The position numbers and the translations under genes are program-made. A stretch of DNA of 6,004 bases, taken from Vibrio cholerae ATCC 14035. GTDB lineage: Bacteria; Pseudomonadota; Gammaproteobacteria; Enterobacterales; Vibrionaceae. The notes beneath the pieces are model-generated. The model did no database searches, had not been told where the DNA came from, and worked only from the letters and a program-made list of their open reading frames with translations. Below are positions 1 through 6,004 of this stretch, one piece after another (the first letter of the stretch is position 1; each line of letters starts with the position of its first letter). Location of the stretch: assembly GCF_000621645.1 (NCBI RefSeq), contig NZ_JHXR01000050.1:1-6004 (forward strand), given 5' to 3'.

Positions 1-97
1 CGCGTGGCGTTTCCAGTCCCATTGAGCCGCGGTGGTTACGGTTGGTGTGTTTGAGTTTTGTGTTATGCGTTGTCAGCCCCTTAGGCGGGCGTTAGCC
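1..97 (+). repeat. VCR-type attC, 3' part only (truncated by window start)
   Basis: Matches the distal ~97 nt of the other VCR copies (cgcgtggcgtttccagtccc...gccccttaggcgggcgtta). R' core GTTAGCC at 91-97. Confidence 0.95.
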
Positions 98-120
98 GTT
101 TGAAAACTTGCTATGCTCAG

Positions 121-140
121 AGTGATAGAATAGTATCACT
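121..140 (+). promoter_or_regulatory. Putative TA promoter (extended -10) overlapped by a palindromic operator
   Basis: TGATAGAAT at 123-131 fits the extended -10 pattern TGnTAnAAT. No well-spaced -35 (TTGAAA 99-104 is 21 nt away). Perfect inverted repeat AGTGATA (121-127) / TATCACT (134-140), plus a further half-site-like AGTGTT at 143-148. It lies ~25 nt upstream of the antitoxin RBS GGAG (154-157). Confidence 0.5.
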
Positions 141-165
141 TCAGTGTTTCTTTGGAGCAGCTCAA

Positions 166-423
166 ATGAAAGTAGAACTTGTGACGTCACTAAAACGTCA
201 GGCCACTAAGATCCTTGCCGATCTTCATGATACGAAAGAGCCAGTATTGATAACTGAGCACGGAAAACCGTCAGCTTACCTTATTGATGTAGACGACTAT
301 GAATTTATGCAAAATCGTTTAGCGATCCTGGAAGGTATTGCTCGTGGAGAGCGAGCTCTAGCGGATGGCAAAGTGGTCAGCCATCAAGATGCTAAGGACA
401 GAATGTCAAAATGGCTGAAATAA
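166..423 (+). CDS. Type II antitoxin, Phd/YefM (StbD/RelB-like) family, 85 aa
   Basis: MKVELVTSLKRQATKILADLHDTKEPVLITEHGKPSAYLIDVDDYEFM... is a typical Phd/YefM N-terminal domain. ATG 166 is preceded by GGAG with an 8-nt spacer; the tracked start at 100 is an in-frame upstream extension. It overlaps the downstream toxin gene by 13 nt. Confidence 0.88.
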   Translation: MKVELVTSLKRQATKILADLHDTKEPVLITEHGKPSAYLIDVDDYEFMQNRLAILEGIARGERALADGKVVSHQDAKDRMSKWLK

Positions 424-713
424 TTTGGACGGAGCCGGCTCTATCCGACCTGAATGATATTGCTGAATACATCGCGCTTGAAAATGTCGTGGCTGCTAAA
501 CAACTCGTGCAAACCGTTTTTACAAAAGTTGAACGTTTGGCCGATTTTCCAGAGTCTGGGCGCGTCCCTTTAGAACTAGAACACCTCAATTATCGTGAAG
601 TCGTTGTAAATCCGTGTCGTGTTTTCTATAAGTATGATGATGCAAAGGTTCGTATTCTTTTTGTTATGCGTGCGGAGCGAGATTTGCGTCGGTTAATGCT
701 TACGAAACAGTAG
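411..713 (+). CDS. Type II toxin, RelE/ParE superfamily (ParE-like N-terminus), 100 aa
   Basis: IIWTEPALSDLNDIAEYIA...FPESGR...YREVVVNPCRVFYKYDDAKVRILFVMRAERD is the characteristic RelE/ParE 'plasmid stabilisation' pattern. It is translationally overlapped with the upstream antitoxin, the canonical antitoxin-toxin order. Confidence 0.88.
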   Translation: MAEIIWTEPALSDLNDIAEYIALENVVAAKQLVQTVFTKVERLADFPESGRVPLELEHLNYREVVVNPCRVFYKYDDAKVRILFVMRAERDLRRLMLTKQ

Positions 714-727
714 GTTTGGAAAAAAAC

Positions 728-855
728 GGCTAACAAACGCCTCAAGAGGGACTGTCAACGCGCGGCGTTTCCAGTCCCAATGAGCCGCGGTGGTTTCGGT
801 TGTTGTGTTTGAGTTTAGTGTTATGCGTTGTCAGCCCCTTAGGCGGGCGTTAGTG
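728..855 (+). repeat. VCR-type attC (closes TA cassette)
   Basis: TAACAAACGCCTCAAGAGGGACTGTCAACGCG from 731. R' core GTTAGTG at 849-855. Confidence 0.95.
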
Positions 856-874
856 TGATTAAGAGGAAAAACAT

Positions 875-1456
875 TTGAATATACCTCATGAAACGCAGTT
901 TTTCGGTAATTTGGTGGATTTGGATTGTTATGTACAAGACTTATTATTGATACTTGAGAAAACAGAAAGTATTGAGCTTGGTAGTAATTCTGACGGTCTT
1001 ACTTGTGACTGTTTTCCTGACGTTACCCGAAAAAGCCATATTGTTACTGTGCTAATTGTTCTCGAACGGGAATTCTCTGCATTTTGTAATCAGCTCAAGC
1101 TAGCAACCGATCAGCCACTAAAGTGGAATGATCTAAAAGGTAGTGCTATTGAAAGATTTATTAAGTATTGCTCGTCAGTTTGTGGTGTTACCGCACCAGA
1201 AAATCCGTCAAATCTCCAAGATGTTAAAGGGTTAATCGAACTACGAAATTGTATCGTTCACAATGACTCTTGCATTGAGGGGTTTTCTAAAGCTACTGCA
1301 ATAAAACAATTAGCTTCCCGATACGACGGTATCGACATCAATGAAGGTTATATAACTCTTAGTCATGATGCTTGTATCAGGCTTACGGTTGTTGCTTTCA
1401 ACTTTTTAGAAAGCTGGTATCACTCAGTATTAAATCATTTAACTCCATCACACTAA
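875..1456 (+). CDS. HEPN-like domain protein (predicted RNase-type toxin/Abi-like effector), 193 aa, TTG start
   Basis: The ORF fills the cassette. It has no internal Met, so TTG 875 is the candidate start, preceded by AAGAGGA (861-867) with a 7-nt spacer. LIELRNCIVHND (R124-H129, nt 1244-1261) matches the HEPN Rx4-6H motif. The TAA stop (1454-1456) is the TAA of the attC R'' box. Confidence 0.62.
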   Translation: MNIPHETQFFGNLVDLDCYVQDLLLILEKTESIELGSNSDGLTCDCFPDVTRKSHIVTVLIVLEREFSAFCNQLKLATDQPLKWNDLKGSAIERFIKYCSSVCGVTAPENPSNLQDVKGLIELRNCIVHNDSCIEGFSKATAIKQLASRYDGIDINEGYITLSHDACIRLTVVAFNFLESWYHSVLNHLTPSH

Positions 1457-1576
1457 CAAACGGTTCAAGAGGGACAGCCAACGCGTGGCATTTTCACTAT
1501 GCGTTGGTTTTTGTGGTTACGGTGTTATGCGGAAGCTTGGTAGTGGCGTTGGCTGCCCCTTAACCGGGCGTTATGC
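1451..1576 (+). repeat. Divergent attC (not canonical VCR) closing the HEPN cassette
   Basis: Same length class and same termini (TAACAAAC... ...GGGCGTTATGC). The arms read CGGTTCAAGAGGGACAGCCAACGCG / GCGTTGGCTGCCCCTTAACCG instead of CGCCT...CTGTCAACGCG / GCGTTGCCAGCCCCTTAGGCG. The central region is largely different. R' core GTTATGC at 1570-1576. Confidence 0.88.
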
Positions 1577-1638
1577 TTAATCCATAAAAATCAGTAGGTT
1601 GTGGTTGTCGACTCCTTTGGTATTTCGTTCATGTTTTT

Positions 1639-1720
1639 TCGGCAATTCAATATTGTTTTTCGCTGCCTAATGAAGCGGCAATGTATCTGGCGCTGTAAAT
1701 TCTGAGTGATTGCCTCATTG
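1639..1720 (+). repeat. ~82-bp internal module, copy A1
   Basis: tcggcaattcaatattgtttttcgctgcctaatgaagcggcaatgtatctggcgctgtaaattctgagtgattgcctcattg is similar to 1806-1888, 4437-4518 and 4604-4686. Confidence 0.8.
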
Positions 1721-1805
1721 GGCTTTTGAGTCCACGCGAGGTGAGTTTTGCTCTCTCAAGTCGCTTTGAGCAGTTTGGTGCCTTTACTTATAGGCTTAAA
1801 GTTTG

Positions 1806-1888
1806 TCGGCAATTGAGCATTGTTTTGCGCTGCCTAATGAAACGGCAATGTGTCTGTCGCTGTAAATTTCAGTGTTATTACCTCATTG
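1806..1888 (+). repeat. ~83-bp internal module, copy A2
   Basis: tcggcaattgagcattgttttgcgctgcctaatgaaacggcaatgtgtctgtcgctgtaaatttcagtgttattacctcattg. It starts 167 nt after A1 starts. Confidence 0.8.
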
Positions 1889-2085
1889 AGTTGTTGTGCC
1901 AATGTGTGGTGAGTGAGTTTGTCGGAGAGGGTTTCAACATTAGCTGAGTTGATAGATGAAACTCTGCTTTGGTCAGTTCATAGGTAAAATTTGAGTCAGT
2001 TCTAACTCAAGGAAATTCGAAGTTTGGTTAATGATTTCAGTGGGTTACTCTTGAGTTGGTTCAAATGTAAAGTGTTGAAGCTTAA

Positions 2086-2213
2086 GCATAACAAACGCCT
2101 CAAGAGGGACTGTCAACGCGTGGCGTTTCCAGTCCCAATGAGCCGCGCTGGTTTCGGTTGTTGTGGTTGAGTTTAGTGTTATGCGTTGTCAGCCCTTTAG
2201 GCGGGCGTTATGT
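2086..2213 (+). repeat. VCR-type attC
   Basis: TAACAAACGCC from 2089. R' core GTTATGT at 2207-2213. Confidence 0.95.
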
Positions 2214-2262
2214 GAATTTGGTAATTCCTACCCAAAATGGAAATTGTAGAAAAGGAAAAAGA

Positions 2263-2649
2263 GTGAATAAAATAAGGAAAGAGCCTTTGTTGGCAGAGGT
2301 TGAACGTCGACTAGCGAAGCCTATTTTTGGTGAGCGTAATAAAAATTGTGTTGTTGTACGGCTAAATGATGACCTGACAGAAAAAAATAGTATTCAAGAA
2401 AGCACATTTAAGCTGAGAGCTCATGGTTTTAAAGCCAGTATTAGTAATGCTAGAGATTCTTCTTTTGTGGTATTAACGAATGCCAAAGGTGTTGCTTTAA
2501 TAGGGAGCATTGTTGATGTTGAGCCACATGAAGAGCTTGAAGGACGAATTAATATCTATTTCAGGGATCCTTGCCATATTGATTCCGATGAGTTGGCTAA
2601 ATTCGTAACTTGGAACAATAGCAACCCAGTTCGCACAATACGTCTGTAA
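2263..2649 (+). CDS. Hypothetical protein, ~128 aa, non-ATG start (start uncertain: GTG 2263 preferred, GTG 2212 possible)
   Basis: The tracked ORF starts at 2158, inside the VCR, and has no in-frame ATG downstream of it. GTG 2263 is preceded by AAGGA (2252-2256) with a 6-nt spacer. The ORF fills the cassette and ends 9 nt before the next attC R'' TAAC. I recognise no family motif. Confidence 0.6.
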   Translation: MNKIRKEPLLAEVERRLAKPIFGERNKNCVVVRLNDDLTEKNSIQESTFKLRAHGFKASISNARDSSFVVLTNAKGVALIGSIVDVEPHEELEGRINIYFRDPCHIDSDELAKFVTWNNSNPVRTIRL

Positions 2650-2655
2650 AAATTC

Positions 2656-2783
2656 ACATAACAAACGCCTCAAGAGGGACTGTCAACGCGTGGCGTTTCC
2701 AGTCCCATTGAGCCGCGGTGGTTACGGTTGTTGTGATTGAGTTTAGTGGTATGCGTTGCCAGCCCCTTAGGCGGGCGTTATAT
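2656..2783 (+). repeat. VCR-type attC
   Basis: TAACAAACGCC from 2659. R' core GTTATAT at 2777-2783. Confidence 0.95.
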
Positions 2784-2797
2784 GCTAGTGAGGCAAA

Positions 2798-3724
2798 ATG
2801 GATAGTTTGAACTCATTTCGTAATGTGACAGAAAGAGACATTGATCTCCTATTGATTGAAGAGTTACAAGTATCACCTAGCTTTGCAAATTGGTTTGTTT
2901 ACAAAGCTCTGGGAGAGGCTACCACTGTAAAATCACTCGGAGTGTGGCATTCAGTTTCTGACGCTACTTTGGGGGAGTCAGATCTTATTTTTAAATTCCA
3001 ATCTGACAATGGAGTTGTTGAAGGTCTTTTGATAGAAAATAAAATTGATGCAGACGCTCAACCTGAACAAGGTGAGAGATATCAGCTTCGAGGTCATAAA
3101 GGTAAAGAGCAAGGATATTGGGAAGATTTCAGAACATGCATATTAGCTCCTCTGGCCTATCTAGAAAGAAATATAGAGCCATATGACTGTGAAATTGCAT
3201 ATGAAGACATTATTGGCTACTTAAAGTCCAAGAATAGTGCACGTAGTAATTATCGTGCTAATGTCCTGACTTCTGCAGTTGAAAAGCAAAGAAGAGGATA
3301 TGTTTCATGCGTTTCTATAGCGATGACAGAATATGCCAGAAAGTATTTAGAGTACGTTTCTAAATATCATCCAGAGCTTCGGCCAGAAAAAAGTAAACCA
3401 AGAGCAGAAGGGCATACTTGGATTAATTTTTACCCTTTTGGTGTAGAGAAAAAGATGCCGATTGTTCATCAAATTTATGGTGATGCGGTGAAAATTATGT
3501 TTTTGGCTCAAGCAGAAAGGTATGAAGAGTTATCACTCATCTTCAACGATTTCAATGCCCATCCATTAGTGGTCAGGCAATCTGGAAAGTCAGTTATTGT
3601 CGAGGTCAAAGTCCCAAGCATAGACCCTATTATTGAAACGTTCGAAGCTTCATTTCCAGCAGTCCAAGAGGCTATCAAGGTTGCGCTGGATTTGTATGCT
3701 TATTGTGTTGAAAAACGCATATAA
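2798..3724 (+). CDS. PD-(D/E)xK nuclease superfamily protein (PDDEXK_4-like), 308 aa
   Basis: ATG 2798 with GAGG upstream. The N-terminal core reads ERDIDLLL ... GESD62LIFKF ... GLLIE80NK82IDADAQPEQGERY, i.e. D...ExK followed by the Q..RY helix typical of this nuclease family. The TAA stop (3722-3724) is the attC R'' TAA. Confidence 0.72.
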   Translation: MDSLNSFRNVTERDIDLLLIEELQVSPSFANWFVYKALGEATTVKSLGVWHSVSDATLGESDLIFKFQSDNGVVEGLLIENKIDADAQPEQGERYQLRGHKGKEQGYWEDFRTCILAPLAYLERNIEPYDCEIAYEDIIGYLKSKNSARSNYRANVLTSAVEKQRRGYVSCVSIAMTEYARKYLEYVSKYHPELRPEKSKPRAEGHTWINFYPFGVEKKMPIVHQIYGDAVKIMFLAQAERYEELSLIFNDFNAHPLVVRQSGKSVIVEVKVPSIDPIIETFEASFPAVQEAIKVALDLYAYCVEKRI

Positions 3725-3845
3725 CAAACGCCTCAAGAGGGACTGTCAACGCGCGGCGTTTCCAGTCCCATTGAGCCGCTGTGGTTGCAGTTGTTTGTTT
3801 GAGTTCAGTGTTATGCGTTGCCAGCCCCTTAGGCGGGCGTTATGA
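3719..3845 (+). repeat. VCR-type attC
   Basis: TAACAAACGCC from 3722. R' core GTTATGA at 3839-3845. Confidence 0.95.
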
Positions 3846-3863
3846 GGCTATAGGAAAACAAAG

Positions 3864-4250
3864 ATGAATCACGATGAGTTCAACCAATTTTGTCGTTCCT
3901 TTCCTGCTACTACATACGTGGTGCAATGGGGTGGCTCCCATGTTTGGAAAGTGGCGGGAAAAGTGTTTTCTATTGGCAGTATCGGCAAGGATCAGCACCC
4001 CGTTTTTACTTTCAAAACATCGGATTTGAACTTTGAGTATCTGAGTGAACACGATGGTTATATTCCCGCCCCTTACTTCGCCAACCGAGGTATGAAGTGG
4101 ATCCAACAAACGGAGACGTCAGGTGTATTAGACGAAGAGTTGAAGTATTACTTGTCTGAGTCCTACCGTCTTGTTGTGCTCGGGCTTAGTAAAAGGTTAC
4201 AGAAAGAGTTGGGAATTACGTCAAGAGCAGACGGTGAATCCGCCTCATAA
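3864..4250 (+). CDS. MmcQ/YjbR family (DUF419) DNA-binding-fold protein, 128 aa
   Basis: FCRSFPATTYVVQWGGSHVWKVAGKVFSIG...FTFKTS...YIPAPYFANRGMKWIQ...EELKYYLSESYRLVV matches the YjbR/MmcQ pattern as I recall it. AGGA (3852-3855) sits 8 nt upstream of the ATG. The TAA stop (4248-4250) is the attC R'' TAA. Confidence 0.8.
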   Translation: MNHDEFNQFCRSFPATTYVVQWGGSHVWKVAGKVFSIGSIGKDQHPVFTFKTSDLNFEYLSEHDGYIPAPYFANRGMKWIQQTETSGVLDEELKYYLSESYRLVVLGLSKRLQKELGITSRADGESAS

Positions 4251-4373
4251 CAAACGCCTCAAGAGGGACTGTCAACGCGTGGCGTTTCCAGTCCCATTGA
4301 GCCGCGGTGGTTGCAGTTGTTGTGTTTGAGTTTGGTGATAGTGCGTTGCCAGCCCCTTAGGCGGGCGTTATGC
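4245..4373 (+). repeat. VCR-type attC
   Basis: TAACAAACGCC from 4248. R' core GTTATGC at 4367-4373. Confidence 0.95.
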
Positions 4374-4436
4374 TTAATCCATAAAAAATCAGCAGGTTGT
4401 GATTGTCGATTCCTTTGGCATTTCGTTCTGGTTTTG

Positions 4437-4518
4437 TCGGCAATTCAATATTGTTTGTCGCTGTCTAATGAAGCAGCAATGTATCTGGTGCTAAAAATTC
4501 AGTGTTATTGCCTCATTG
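4437..4518 (+). repeat. ~82-bp internal module, copy B1
   Basis: tcggcaattcaatattgtttgtcgctgtctaatgaagcagcaatgtatctggtgctaaaaattcagtgttattgcctcattg. Confidence 0.8.
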
Positions 4519-4603
4519 CAATATTGAGTCTGCGCGGGGTGAATGTTGCTGGCTCAAGTCGTTTTGAGCCGTTTGGTGCCTTTACTTACAGGCTGAAAGT
4601 CAG

Positions 4604-4686
4604 TCGGCAATTGAGCATTGTTTTTCGCTGCCTAATGAAACGGCAATGTGTCTGTCGCTGTAAATTTCAGTGTTATTGCCTCATTG
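4604..4686 (+). repeat. ~83-bp internal module, copy B2
   Basis: tcggcaattgagcattgtttttcgctgcctaatgaaacggcaatgtgtctgtcgctgtaaatttcagtgttattgcctcattg. It starts 167 nt after B1 starts. Confidence 0.8.
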
Positions 4687-4882
4687 AGTTGTCGCGCCCA
4701 TGCGTGGTGAGTTGGTTTATCGGAGAGGGTCTCCACATTGGCCTAGTTGCTAAATGAAAGCCTGCATTGGTCAGTTCATAGGTAAAAATTGAGCCAGTTC
4801 TAATTCAAGGAAACTCGGAGTTTGGCCAATGATTTCAGTTGGTTATCATTGATTTGATTAAATGTAAAGTGTTGAAGCTTAA

Positions 4883-5010
4883 GCATAACAAACGCCTCAA
4901 GAGGGACTGTCAACGCGTAGCGTTTCCAGTCCCATTGAGCCGCGGTGGTTACGGTTGTTGTGGTTGAGTTTAGTGTTATGCGTTGCCAGCCCCTTAGGCG
5001 GGCGTTAGGT
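4883..5010 (+). repeat. VCR-type attC
   Basis: TAACAAACGCC from 4886. R' core GTTAGGT at 5004-5010. Confidence 0.95.
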
Positions 5011-5042
5011 GAATGGTCAGTGGATTGAACAAGGACAGTTTT

Positions 5043-5438
5043 ATGAAATGGTTTTTAGCTTTTTGGCTCGTTCTCACAAGCTGTTTTTCGGTTAGCTTGT
5101 ATGCCAATGACGCCGTTTTACAACAAGCTTATCAATCGCAGCAAAGTGACTTGCAAGTTCAAGGACTTGGACAAGTAGTAAAAGTGTTGCCCGACGACAA
5201 TGATGGTTCGAGGCATCAAAAATTCATCTTAAAGCTCAATAGCGGACAAACATTGCTGGTTGCACATAACATCGACTTAGCACCAAGAATTCCGAACTTG
5301 AAAGTTGGCGATAGTGTTGAGTTTTATGGTGAATACGAATGGAACAAAAAGGGTGGGGTTCTTCACTGGACTCATAAAGATCCTCAAAATCGTCATGCTC
5401 ATGGTTGGTTAAAACACAATGAGCAGGTGTACGAGTAA
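5043..5438 (+). CDS. DUF3465-like exported protein, 131 aa
   Basis: ATG 5043 is preceded by AAGGA (5031-5035) with a 7-nt spacer; the tracked 5013 start adds 10 aa without an RBS. The N-terminal signal sequence is MKWFLAFWLVLTSCFSVSLYA. The mature part (VKVLPDDNDGSRHQKFILKLNSGQTLLVAHNIDLAPRIP...GDSVEFYGEYEWNKKGGVLHWTHKDP) matches the DUF3465 pattern as I recall it. Confidence 0.8.
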   Translation: MKWFLAFWLVLTSCFSVSLYANDAVLQQAYQSQQSDLQVQGLGQVVKVLPDDNDGSRHQKFILKLNSGQTLLVAHNIDLAPRIPNLKVGDSVEFYGEYEWNKKGGVLHWTHKDPQNRHAHGWLKHNEQVYE

Positions 5439-5442
5439 ATTC

Positions 5443-5571
5443 ACCTAACAAACGCCTCAAGCGGGACTGTCAACGCGCGGCGTTTCCAGTCCCATTGAGC
5501 CGCGGTGGTTTCGGTTGTTGTGTTTGAGTTTAGTGGTAATGCGTTGCCAGCCCCTTAGGCGGGCGTTATGT
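5443..5571 (+). repeat. VCR-type attC (variant with CAAGCGGG instead of CAAGAGGG)
   Basis: TAACAAACGCC from 5446. R' core GTTATGT at 5565-5571. C at 5462 where all other copies have A. Confidence 0.95.
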
Positions 5572-5603
5572 GTTTTTCTGGAAAACTTTCATAGCTCTGC
5601 GCT

Positions 5604-5609
5604 TATAAT
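5604..5609 (+). promoter_or_regulatory. Possible cassette-internal -10 box
   Basis: Perfect TATAAT at 5604-5609, ~19 nt upstream of the ATG at 5628. Only a weak -35 candidate (TGGAAA 5579-5584, 19-nt spacing). Confidence 0.3.
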
Positions 5610-5627
5610 TCAGACGTGAGGTGCACT

Positions 5628-5849
5628 ATGTCTGAAAATCAAAACGTTAAAAGAGCTGAACCGATTGAAACGTGTTCATATAAGAGTCCTTGTGTTCGTC
5701 ATTGTTGTTTAGATGACAAAGACATCTGCATAGGTTGTGGCAGGACTATTGACGAGATATGTCGTTGGAGTAGTGCAACAAATAGCGAAAAACAAGAAAT
5801 ATTAATCAATTGCTTAGCTAGAGTTCAGGGCCGAAATATATCGACATGA
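5628..5849 (+). CDS. DUF1289-like Cys-rich (putative Fe-S/metal-binding) small protein, 73 aa
   Basis: SPCVRHCCLDDKDICIGCGRTIDEICRW matches the SPC..C...C.GC.RT..EI..W signature of the DUF1289 (YdhL-like) family. ATG 5628 is preceded by GAGG (5618-5621); the tracked GTG 5616 start adds only 4 aa. Confidence 0.8.
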   Translation: MSENQNVKRAEPIETCSYKSPCVRHCCLDDKDICIGCGRTIDEICRWSSATNSEKQEILINCLARVQGRNIST

Positions 5850-5952
5850 AGCATCTTAGTCTTGTGTATATGATAGTTTTTTATCGAATGCTGTTTGGCA
5901 TAAATGCCTTTCGCTACCCCTTTAAATGGAAGGGTGGGCATCAGAAACACAC

Positions 5953-6004
5953 ACATAACAAACGCCTCAAGAGGGACTGTCAACGCGCGGCGTTTCCAGT
6001 CCCA
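5953..6004 (+). repeat. VCR-type attC, 5' part only (truncated by window end)
   Basis: TAACAAACGCCTCAAGAGGGACTGTCAACGCGCGGCGTTTCCAGTCCCA from 5956. Confidence 0.95.

Follow-up and report, generated by a model that had tools for sequence, protein, structure and literature searches.

A single-gene integron cassette of Vibrio cholerae encoding a HEPN-like protein: a candidate defence or growth-arrest module

Integron cassettes whose sole product is a HEPN protein have been published before. The 'integron cassette HEPN' family, represented by PDB 3jrt, was predicted to be a dormancy ribonuclease (RNase) (Anantharaman et al. 2013, PMC3710099), whereas anti-phage activity has been demonstrated for Esos, a single-gene HEPN-only cassette that belongs to the superintegron of N16961 (Darracq et al., bioRxiv 10.1101/2024.07.02.601686, Science 2025). 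HNPBCG_15845 of Vibrio mimicus MB461, a cassette encoding a HEPN AbiU2 domain, confers resistance to T4 and T7 (bioRxiv 10.64898/2026.03.17.712381). Since these three are on record as solo integron HEPNs, the concept is already known. A further described system is Agap-HEPN/AmAgo, in which a proven HEPN RNase precedes a prokaryotic Argonaute (pAgo) of the long-A type and makes its guides (Agapov et al. 2024, PMC11162769). Here we analyse a cassette at positions 850 to 1570 of a 6,004-nucleotide stretch of DNA from Vibrio cholerae ATCC 14035 (NCBI RefSeq contig NZ_JHXR01000050.1, positions 1 to 6,004 of the forward strand), hereafter the window. On balance, we favour the reading that this cassette is a single-gene module of defence or growth arrest whose product would act as a HEPN-type RNase. 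The free-standing, all-helical protein of ~22 kDa is best explained as belonging to an uncharacterised clade near the RiboL-PSP/AbiD-AbiF HEPNs and those associated with reverse transcriptases (RTs). Taken alone, the cassette fits the published concept of HEPN-only integron defence and opens no new question.

The window is part of the chromosome 2 superintegron of V. cholerae, of the O395 type, and consists of a run of cassettes with attC sites of ~120 bp and of the V. cholerae repeat (VCR) type between them. Its full sequence shows 3 nt of difference to four other loci of V. cholerae, and O395 assemblies are the source of two of these. The features of the cassette are as follows:

850..1570, + strand: complete integron gene cassette of 721 bp, from the TT of the preceding attC R' to the G of its own R'; junctions read directly
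861..867, + strand: Shine-Dalgarno (SD) sequence AAGAGGA, 7 nt before the TTG start codon
875..1456, + strand: open reading frame (ORF) of 193 aa for a HEPN-like all-alpha protein, with a TTG start, 37 close homologues and 1606 family representatives
1064..1066, + strand: codon of E64, a nearly invariant acidic residue (≥90% in alignments A3, A4 and A6) in the second long helix (residues 47-78)
1244..1261, + strand: codons of R124-N-C-I-V-H129, the candidate catalytic HEPN motif Rx4H, invariant in 31 close homologues
1453..1576, + strand: non-VCR attC site, with the stop codon TAA (1454-1456) within its R'' box

The cassette edges are exact (G/TT at 849/850 and 1570/1571) and enclose what defines an integron cassette, namely, one ORF with no promoter of its own, flanked by attC sites that show R''/L''-L'/R' pairing and extrahelical bases. 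The identical 721 bp were found in six V. cholerae loci. In one of these (L002), the cassette and its attC occupy another array position with other neighbours, and the toxin-antitoxin (TA) cassette that lies upstream in the window is absent. The cassette therefore moves as a unit, as is evident from the identical copy, attC included, at another place in a different V. cholerae array. The cassette is real, mobile and horizontally shared and has a non-VCR attC; the first-pass annotation, made from the sequence of the window, had regarded it as imported, and this is borne out by the attC and by the occurrence of the same cassette in other arrays and species. The identical 193-aa protein is encoded on more than 200 contigs. 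Among the accessions listed for it, at most four per entry, O395 is present, and there is neither an accession nor a locus from N16961. No second family member (paralogue) of V. cholerae was found in the profile search. The cassette belongs to V. cholerae arrays of the classical-biotype type.

Judged by its sequence, the window protein is very probably a member of the HEPN superfamily, and the initial description of it as HEPN-like, with an intact R-N-x3-H site, remains the best reading. An exhaustive profile search at E ≤ 1e-3 returned 1606 cluster representatives, mostly of 190-240 aa. Among 126 diverse members, only E64, G89, R124, N125 and H129 were conserved at ≥90%; R124 and H129 were invariant in 43 distant homologues, and the exact motif RNCIVH, confirmed here at residues 124-129 (nt 1244-1261) as first annotated, was present in 14 of the 14 family proteins examined from genome-collection loci, Flavobacteriia and Paenibacillus included. 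The hallmarks of HEPN domains compiled by Anantharaman et al. (PMC3710099) are the motif Rx4-6H with a polar residue after the arginine, the placement of this motif at the end of a helix and before a loop, a conserved acidic residue in helix 2, often within Ex3[KR], and a variable insert between helices 2 and 3. The window protein carries such a motif in R124-N125-C-I-V-H129. The acidic residue E64 is replaced by D in Nitrospirae-type close homologues, and the position four residues after it is K in many non-Vibrio homologues and S68 in the window protein. The ORF is a real gene under purifying selection, with pairwise ratios of nonsynonymous to synonymous substitution (dN/dS) of 0.04-0.28 against the orthologues of Vibrio campbellii, Vibrio parahaemolyticus and Idiomarina.

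A structure prediction, which had been proposed as a check, pointed in the same direction. AlphaFold2, run on the family alignment, gave a confident all-alpha model with a predicted local distance difference test score (pLDDT) of 91 and a predicted template modelling score (pTM) of 0.86. The predicted helices span residues 5-31, 47-78, 91-102, 111-129, 140-149 and 164-189; residues 153-162 are predicted to form a small hairpin. E64 lies within helix 47-78, and H129 ends helix 111-129 and is followed by the loop 130-139. All four published HEPN features map onto this model, helix 91-102 being the insert, and the motif is thus predicted to stand at a helix end, where HEPN domains carry it.

Of the curated models, PADLOC RTasHEPN scored best: the query matched it with an E value of 1.2e-4 over residues 99-180, the catalytic half, as did 33 of 38 relatives (best E value, 6.8e-11). 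The link to a curated HEPN profile thus runs through RTasHEPN, and Pfam HEPN models were matched by relatives only. HEPN_RiboL-PSP (PF18735) was found in 8 of the 43 distant relatives (best E value, 4.3e-7) and in 5 of the 31 close ones. None of the family members listed has a Pfam domain on record, and their sole informative name, the UniRef label 'RiboL-PSP-HEPN domain-containing protein', sits on an 87%-identical homologue. Two earlier suggestions, a Pfam check for HEPN domains and a RiboL-PSP-type flavour of the motif, hold in part: they are supported by some relatives and by this label, but not by the window protein itself, which remained unmatched.

Several results weigh against the favoured reading. 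The window protein had no match in Pfam or NCBIfam even at E ≤ 10 and does not reach the Pfam gathering threshold of PF18735. The PADLOC models of AbiV, AbiU2, AbiD/F and AbiJ were matched neither by the query at E ≤ 10 nor by the 38 relatives at E ≤ 0.01; Pfam Abi families were likewise unmatched by the query and did not appear in the family-level tallies. Sequence and profile searches of the PDB with the query and alignments A1 and A4 identified no relative, the matches being spurious and of the coiled-coil/ApoE type. With hhalign, the comparison with one bona fide PF18735 subfamily gave an E value of 0.72, and the motif segment alone was aligned. Foldseek found no match in the PDB at E ≤ 0.001; among the top 50 matches, the only solved HEPN was the HEPN toxin 7ae6 (two chains, at ranks 8 and 36), and this match was weak (best probability 0.57, E value 0.66, template modelling (TM) scores 0.37/0.45). 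Furthermore, 72 of the 88 integron cassettes tested gave no defence phenotype.

Homology to the PF18735 subfamily just mentioned, composed of a 176-aa cassette protein of Vibrio cortegadensis and 24 relatives, was considered and rejected, as BLASTP, hhalign and cross-searches with hidden Markov models (HMMs) were all non-significant. This comparison is uninformative rather than contrary, because the subfamily profile is narrow.

The lack of any significant curated Pfam HEPN model on the query and the weak match to solved HEPNs would also suit a silent or non-enzymatic helical protein that descends from HEPNs or only resembles them in its motif and has neither an RNase nor a defence role in V. 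cholerae, being either neutral cargo or a protein with another RNA-binding or regulatory function. Likewise, most cassettes of the sedentary chromosomal integron (SCI) are poorly expressed, and most of those tested had no phenotype. However, strong purifying selection and the conservation, across phyla, of precisely those residues that are putatively catalytic do not sit well with neutral cargo or a non-catalytic motif, and we regard such a protein as improbable.

With regard to the fold, the only Foldseek matches with a probability of 1.0 were BFVD entries A0A8S5NVI2 and A0A8S5LJP3, uncharacterised and with TM scores of ~0.52-0.54. Since both come from Siphoviridae/Myoviridae metagenomes, phages or prophages may carry the same predicted fold. 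A metagenomic protein of 292 aa, P0183, matches the family at residues 117-286 and is a fusion in which an N-terminal helix-turn-helix (HTH) of the Cro/CI type precedes the HEPN-like domain. The PHROGs scan returned HTH matches only, all of which came from one fusion variant.

TTG 875 is the first possible start, with an in-frame stop codon (TAA) at 860-862, and no Met codon follows it. Further in-frame TTG/GTG codons are present at codons 13, 14 and 16. Residues 9-18 (FFGNLVDLDC) are kept in all homologues, including those initiated by ATG, and the start must therefore be upstream of F9 rather than at one of these codons. The first-pass annotation had described a Met-free ORF of 193 aa from TTG 875 with a good SD, AAGAGGA, 7 nt upstream, and these coordinates were all confirmed. 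The sequence TAAGAGGAA at the SD is kept in the cassettes of V. campbellii, V. parahaemolyticus and Idiomarina. The weakness of the start, noted from the window alone, proved to be a conserved trait, as all six homologues from Gammaproteobacteria, with protein identities as low as 49%, begin with TTG preceded by a strong SD:

TTG-start loci: window 875; L036:3001, L037:1150, L007:4001, L038:3001, L009:4001

The TTG is kept even in pairs whose synonymous divergence is saturated (dS > 2). Nitrospirae homologues start with ATG, as do those of Chlorobium and Rhodanobacteraceae according to ORF translations. With a strong SD in front of it, the conservation of the TTG would fit a selection that keeps translation low.

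The 721-bp cassette had been described as partnerless, and our data agree. Apart from a 63-aa frame running through the attC, there is no other ORF of ≥40 aa on either strand of the cassette, and the Rfam scan of the window revealed no RNA family. No MNT gene, the partner that would define a HEPN-MNT pair, was seen in any homologous locus examined, and the neighbours differed in every one of them. The preceding cassette and its control region comprise the following features:

121..140, + strand: putative autoregulated TA promoter/operator, a palindrome AGTGATA-N6-TATCACT with 7-bp arms and an extended -10 element TGATAGAAT at 123-131
166-423, + strand: Phd/YefM antitoxin (Pfam PF02604, 2e-15), context only
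411-713, + strand: ParE toxin (Pfam PF05016, 2.1e-19), context only; with the antitoxin, a self-contained TA cassette (166..713)

There is no conserved partner and the gene is autonomous, because a second ORF or Rfam RNA is lacking, the neighbours vary, and the Phd-ParE pair is complete and absent in L002. ORFs of 243-346 aa lie directly upstream of the gene in Idiomarina, Chlorobium, Aliidiomarina and Nitrospirae, and a two-gene system was suspected. This candidate was rejected, as all-against-all BLASTP revealed these proteins to be unrelated to one another and to the proteins of the window, including that of 308 aa (2798-3724).

The same data bear on whether the gene could be the orphan toxin of a TA or addiction module that stabilises the cassette array, with its antitoxin (e.g., MNT or a small RNA) encoded elsewhere. 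HEPN toxins do occur in HEPN-MNT systems, of which the Foldseek match 7ae6 is one, and integron arrays are rich in TA cassettes, the neighbour in the window included. Nevertheless, the 721 bp leave no space for a second gene and contain no Rfam RNA, the neighbours vary at every locus examined, with unrelated upstream proteins, Phd-ParE is complete on its own and missing in L002, and more than 200 contigs retain the protein in identical form. We therefore consider an orphan toxin very unlikely. How the host tolerates the gene without an antitoxin had been presented as an open question. This view was not sustained, since antitoxin-less solo HEPN defence genes are well known, also from Vibrio integrons; Abi-type HEPN proteins normally lack an antitoxin, and no particular explanation is called for.

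The first-pass annotation had also attached weight to the position of the cassette behind the TA promoter. By eye, an extended -10 element is indeed recognisable within the palindrome, but a consensus sigma-70 scan did not call the promoter at 123-131 because of its poor -35 spacing. The identical cassette in L002 has no TA cassette upstream, and the adjacency to the TA promoter is thus a property of this array and incidental to the cassette. TA cassettes are known to act as weak promoters within the array, and defence becomes active when a cassette is brought nearer to a promoter (Darracq et al., bioRxiv 10.1101/2024.07.02.601686).

A type of promoter that is typically de-repressed under stress would also be compatible with a stress-dormancy RNase that senses no phage but is made when the integron is active under stress, slows translation and aids survival. 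Such a role was proposed for integron HEPN cassettes by Anantharaman et al. (PMC3710099), and the HEPN evidence given above applies to it equally. However, the adjacency to a TA cassette is not conserved, the distant relatives described below are found in contexts of defence against phages or mobile genetic elements (pAgo, restriction-modification) rather than in stress regulons, and phage phenotypes were obtained for both SCI cassettes of the HEPN type that have been tested to date. We thus judge this role to be unlikely.

For the favoured reading, that of a single-gene module of defence or growth arrest, we infer a scheme that covers expression control by the TTG and read-through, dimerisation, RNase activity, the trigger and the defence phenotype. 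The protein would be kept scarce by the location of a promoterless cassette deep in a sedentary integron and by the conserved weak TTG start; transcription in this strain would occur only by read-through, plausibly from the Phd-ParE promoter. According to our proposal, no antitoxin would be needed because the protein is scarce. In the model, a metal-independent site for endoribonuclease activity would be made up of E64 in helix 2 and of R124-N125-x3-H129, which closes helix 3; as in other HEPN enzymes, both subunits of a homodimer would probably be needed to complete it. A trigger, most likely phage infection, would lead to cleavage of cellular or phage RNA and to growth arrest of the abortive-infection type.

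The attC of the cassette sets it apart from its surroundings. It shares 71% identity with a neighbouring VCR, whereas the other seven attC sites of the window are near-identical VCRs, in line with its earlier description as the only non-canonical attC in the window. Compared with the attC sites of homologous cassettes, it is 100% identical in L002 and 83% in V. campbellii. Its bottom strand adopts the canonical hairpin of attC sites, with three single-base bulges (z = -3.1). In a comparison of window positions 1450-1573, sites with 93-95% identity are present in plasmid records of Vibrio navarrensis, V. parahaemolyticus, Vibrio alginolyticus and V. cholerae; several of these plasmids are conjugative, and at least one (pVPH2, L040) carries a cassette array that also contains qnrVC6. 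Plasmid sites in Pseudomonas aeruginosa and Stutzerimonas show ~90% identity. The attC sites of this plasmid-borne type are often annotated as translated 'DUF3265' proteins. On the top strand, positions 1476-1519 of the attC contain an internal hairpin with a 13-bp stem followed by TTTGTGGTT, which the scan flagged as terminator-like, whereas none of the VCRs within the scanned region 1-2300 was flagged. Judged from its sequence, this hairpin could attenuate read-through into the next cassette.

Homologues located in cassette arrays were found in V. campbellii (92% protein identity), V. parahaemolyticus (74%) and V. cortegadensis (50%). An Idiomarina homologue (85%) and those from Nitrospirae, Chlorobium and Aminicenantes metagenome-assembled genomes (~46-51%) are followed by attC-like sequences. 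The neighbours of the homologues are unrelated among the arrays of V. campbellii, V. parahaemolyticus, V. cortegadensis, Idiomarina and Nitrospirae. Integrons have probably spread RNCIVH cassettes over Vibrio, Idiomarina and Nitrospirae, and probably also to Chlorobium and Aminicenantes. The final His codon and the TAA of the window gene are embedded in the R'' box (CAC TAA CAA, window 1451-1459). The same junction was observed in the Nitrospirae, Chlorobium and Aminicenantes homologues, where the attC-like sites are much shorter (L033:5603-5665; downstream in L008 and L010), and this shared stop-in-R'' arrangement suggests an ancient cassette junction. In V. cortegadensis, the second cassette downstream of the homologue with 50% identity is a solo cassette for a 176-aa bona fide Pfam HEPN_RiboL-PSP protein (L038:4315-4845); two different solo HEPN cassettes thus share one array, as L038 holds both.

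More distant relatives occur next to genes of known defence systems. In six genera of Flavobacteriaceae, a family member of 235-243 aa (HMM E value ~1e-27) is encoded on the same strand as, and upstream of, a pAgo gene:

pAgo-linked loci: L019:3749-6621; L020, L021, L024, L025 and L026 (match at ~3725-4456, pAgo at ~4500-6620)

The gap between the two genes is 11-71 bp, and ~45 bp in five of the six loci. The pAgos are of 703-706 aa, match the PADLOC pAgo model (6.6e-281) and Pfam Piwi, and are 86-89% identical to each other. The outer flanks of the loci vary, containing an Eco57I-type methylase and DUF3800, a deaminase-domain protein, or genes on the opposite strand. The closest solved relatives of these pAgos, AfAgo, RsAgo and EcAgo, are of the long-B type, and the Flavobacterial proteins look like inactive long-B pAgos. 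Long-B pAgos normally have abortive-infection effectors as their partners (PMC10620215). That paper does not contain the word HEPN, and we came across no account in the literature of a pAgo-HEPN system of abortive infection whose pAgo is of the inactive long-B type; the Flavobacteriaceae genes may constitute an undescribed pair of pAgo and HEPN effector. Other relatives adjoin a DndB-like gene or transposases, and distant members with the exact RNCIVH motif adjoin pAgo genes, an Eco57I-type restriction-modification methylase or a DndB-like gene. Taken together, the contexts of the relatives point to a role as immune effectors.

The pAgo loci could also be interpreted in terms of an RNA-processing helper of another immune system, for example in Argonaute guide biogenesis, given that in six Flavobacteriaceae loci a family member precedes a same-strand pAgo and that Agap-HEPN, an experimentally proven RNase that makes guides, also precedes its pAgo (PMC11162769). 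Yet the cassette forms of Vibrio, Idiomarina and Nitrospirae have neither a pAgo nor any other constant partner, and the Flavobacterial pAgos look like inactive long-B proteins, whose partners are usually effectors. There is in our view hardly any likelihood that the V. cholerae protein is such a helper.

A broader and more tentative idea, which we consider possible rather than probable, is that the RNCIVH clade comprises undescribed, widespread HEPN effectors, deployed as autonomous integron cassettes and, in Flavobacteriia, as the effector of a catalytically inactive long-B pAgo, with the TTG acting as a dosage control that replaces an antitoxin. If the favoured reading of the cassette as a defence or growth-arrest module is confirmed, one more one-gene defence module would be added to those on chromosomal integrons, and a large unannotated protein family would gain a name and a function. 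The cassette may contribute to lineage differences in the phage sensitivity of V. cholerae, because arrays of the classical-biotype type carry it and we found no evidence of it in N16961. The Flavobacteriia Argonaute link, if functional, would widen the effector repertoire of inactive pAgos.

Other cassettes of the window were also inspected. Positions 1571-2212 and 4373-5008 are paralogous cassettes that align over 514-520 bp, with most columns identical, and lack a convincing gene. PF12493/DUF3709 ORFs are assigned to both by gene callers, and neither has an Rfam match. The former, which was the copy examined, contains a 67-nt direct repeat (1635-1701 and 1802-1868; 88% identical, 167 nt apart). 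The 308-aa protein encoded at 2798-3724 has no Pfam match and weak matches to PADLOC PDC-S26 (E value 7e-4) at residues 56-101, where a D...ExK-like segment (ESDLIF...LIENKID) resembles the PD-(D/E)xK nuclease motif. From these sequence features, it may represent another defence cassette.

In comparison with described families, the window protein resembles PF18735 HEPN_RiboL-PSP, a family distantly related to AbiD/AbiF, in its LRNxxxH-type motif and in the length range of that family (~180-230 aa); it differs in that it does not match the model and that neither a RiboL-PSP fusion nor a ParB operon is present here. The PADLOC RTasHEPN model probably corresponds to the UG22-associated 'cluster 79' (Mestre et al. 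2022, PMC9226505), whereas no RT gene is adjacent here or in any of the loci examined. HepT of the HEPN-MNT system (PDB 7ae6/7ae8), the best, albeit weak, match among solved HEPNs, is likewise a small HEPN RNase with Rx4H. The window protein is ~50 aa longer, has an extra N-terminal helical hairpin and a beta-hairpin, and lacks an MNT partner.

Agap-HEPN and the Flavobacteriia members of the family have in common an Rx4H HEPN gene immediately upstream of a pAgo gene. Agap is, however, longer (catalytic residues R262/H267), and there is an overlap between its gene and that of the pAgo, a long-A protein with catalytic activity, whereas the Flavobacterial pAgos are closest to long-B and the V. 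cholerae cassette has no pAgo. Among the integron systems, the 3jrt family is similar in being composed of stand-alone HEPNs with a conserved Rx4-6H on gammaproteobacterial integron cassettes and in its prediction as an RNase, but it has no detectable similarity to the window protein, as 3jrt appeared neither in the three sequence/profile searches of the PDB nor among the top 50 Foldseek matches. HNPBCG_15845, a predicted dimer, is also a single HEPN protein on a Vibrio integron cassette; it belongs to the AbiU2 family, whose model the window protein does not match.

A close parallel in organisation is with Esos, from which the present protein is probably distinct: compared by description only, it appears to represent another HEPN family and was probably not among the 88 cassettes screened, because N16961 is absent among the accessions listed and no other family member was found in V. 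cholerae. Esos has been validated experimentally, whereas for the present cassette we infer the function. Esos escapes detection by standard defence finders and has been proposed to act by an arrest of growth or the death of the cell upon infection. Both are one-gene cassettes of V. cholerae superintegrons in which a HEPN-like domain is the sole recognisable feature.

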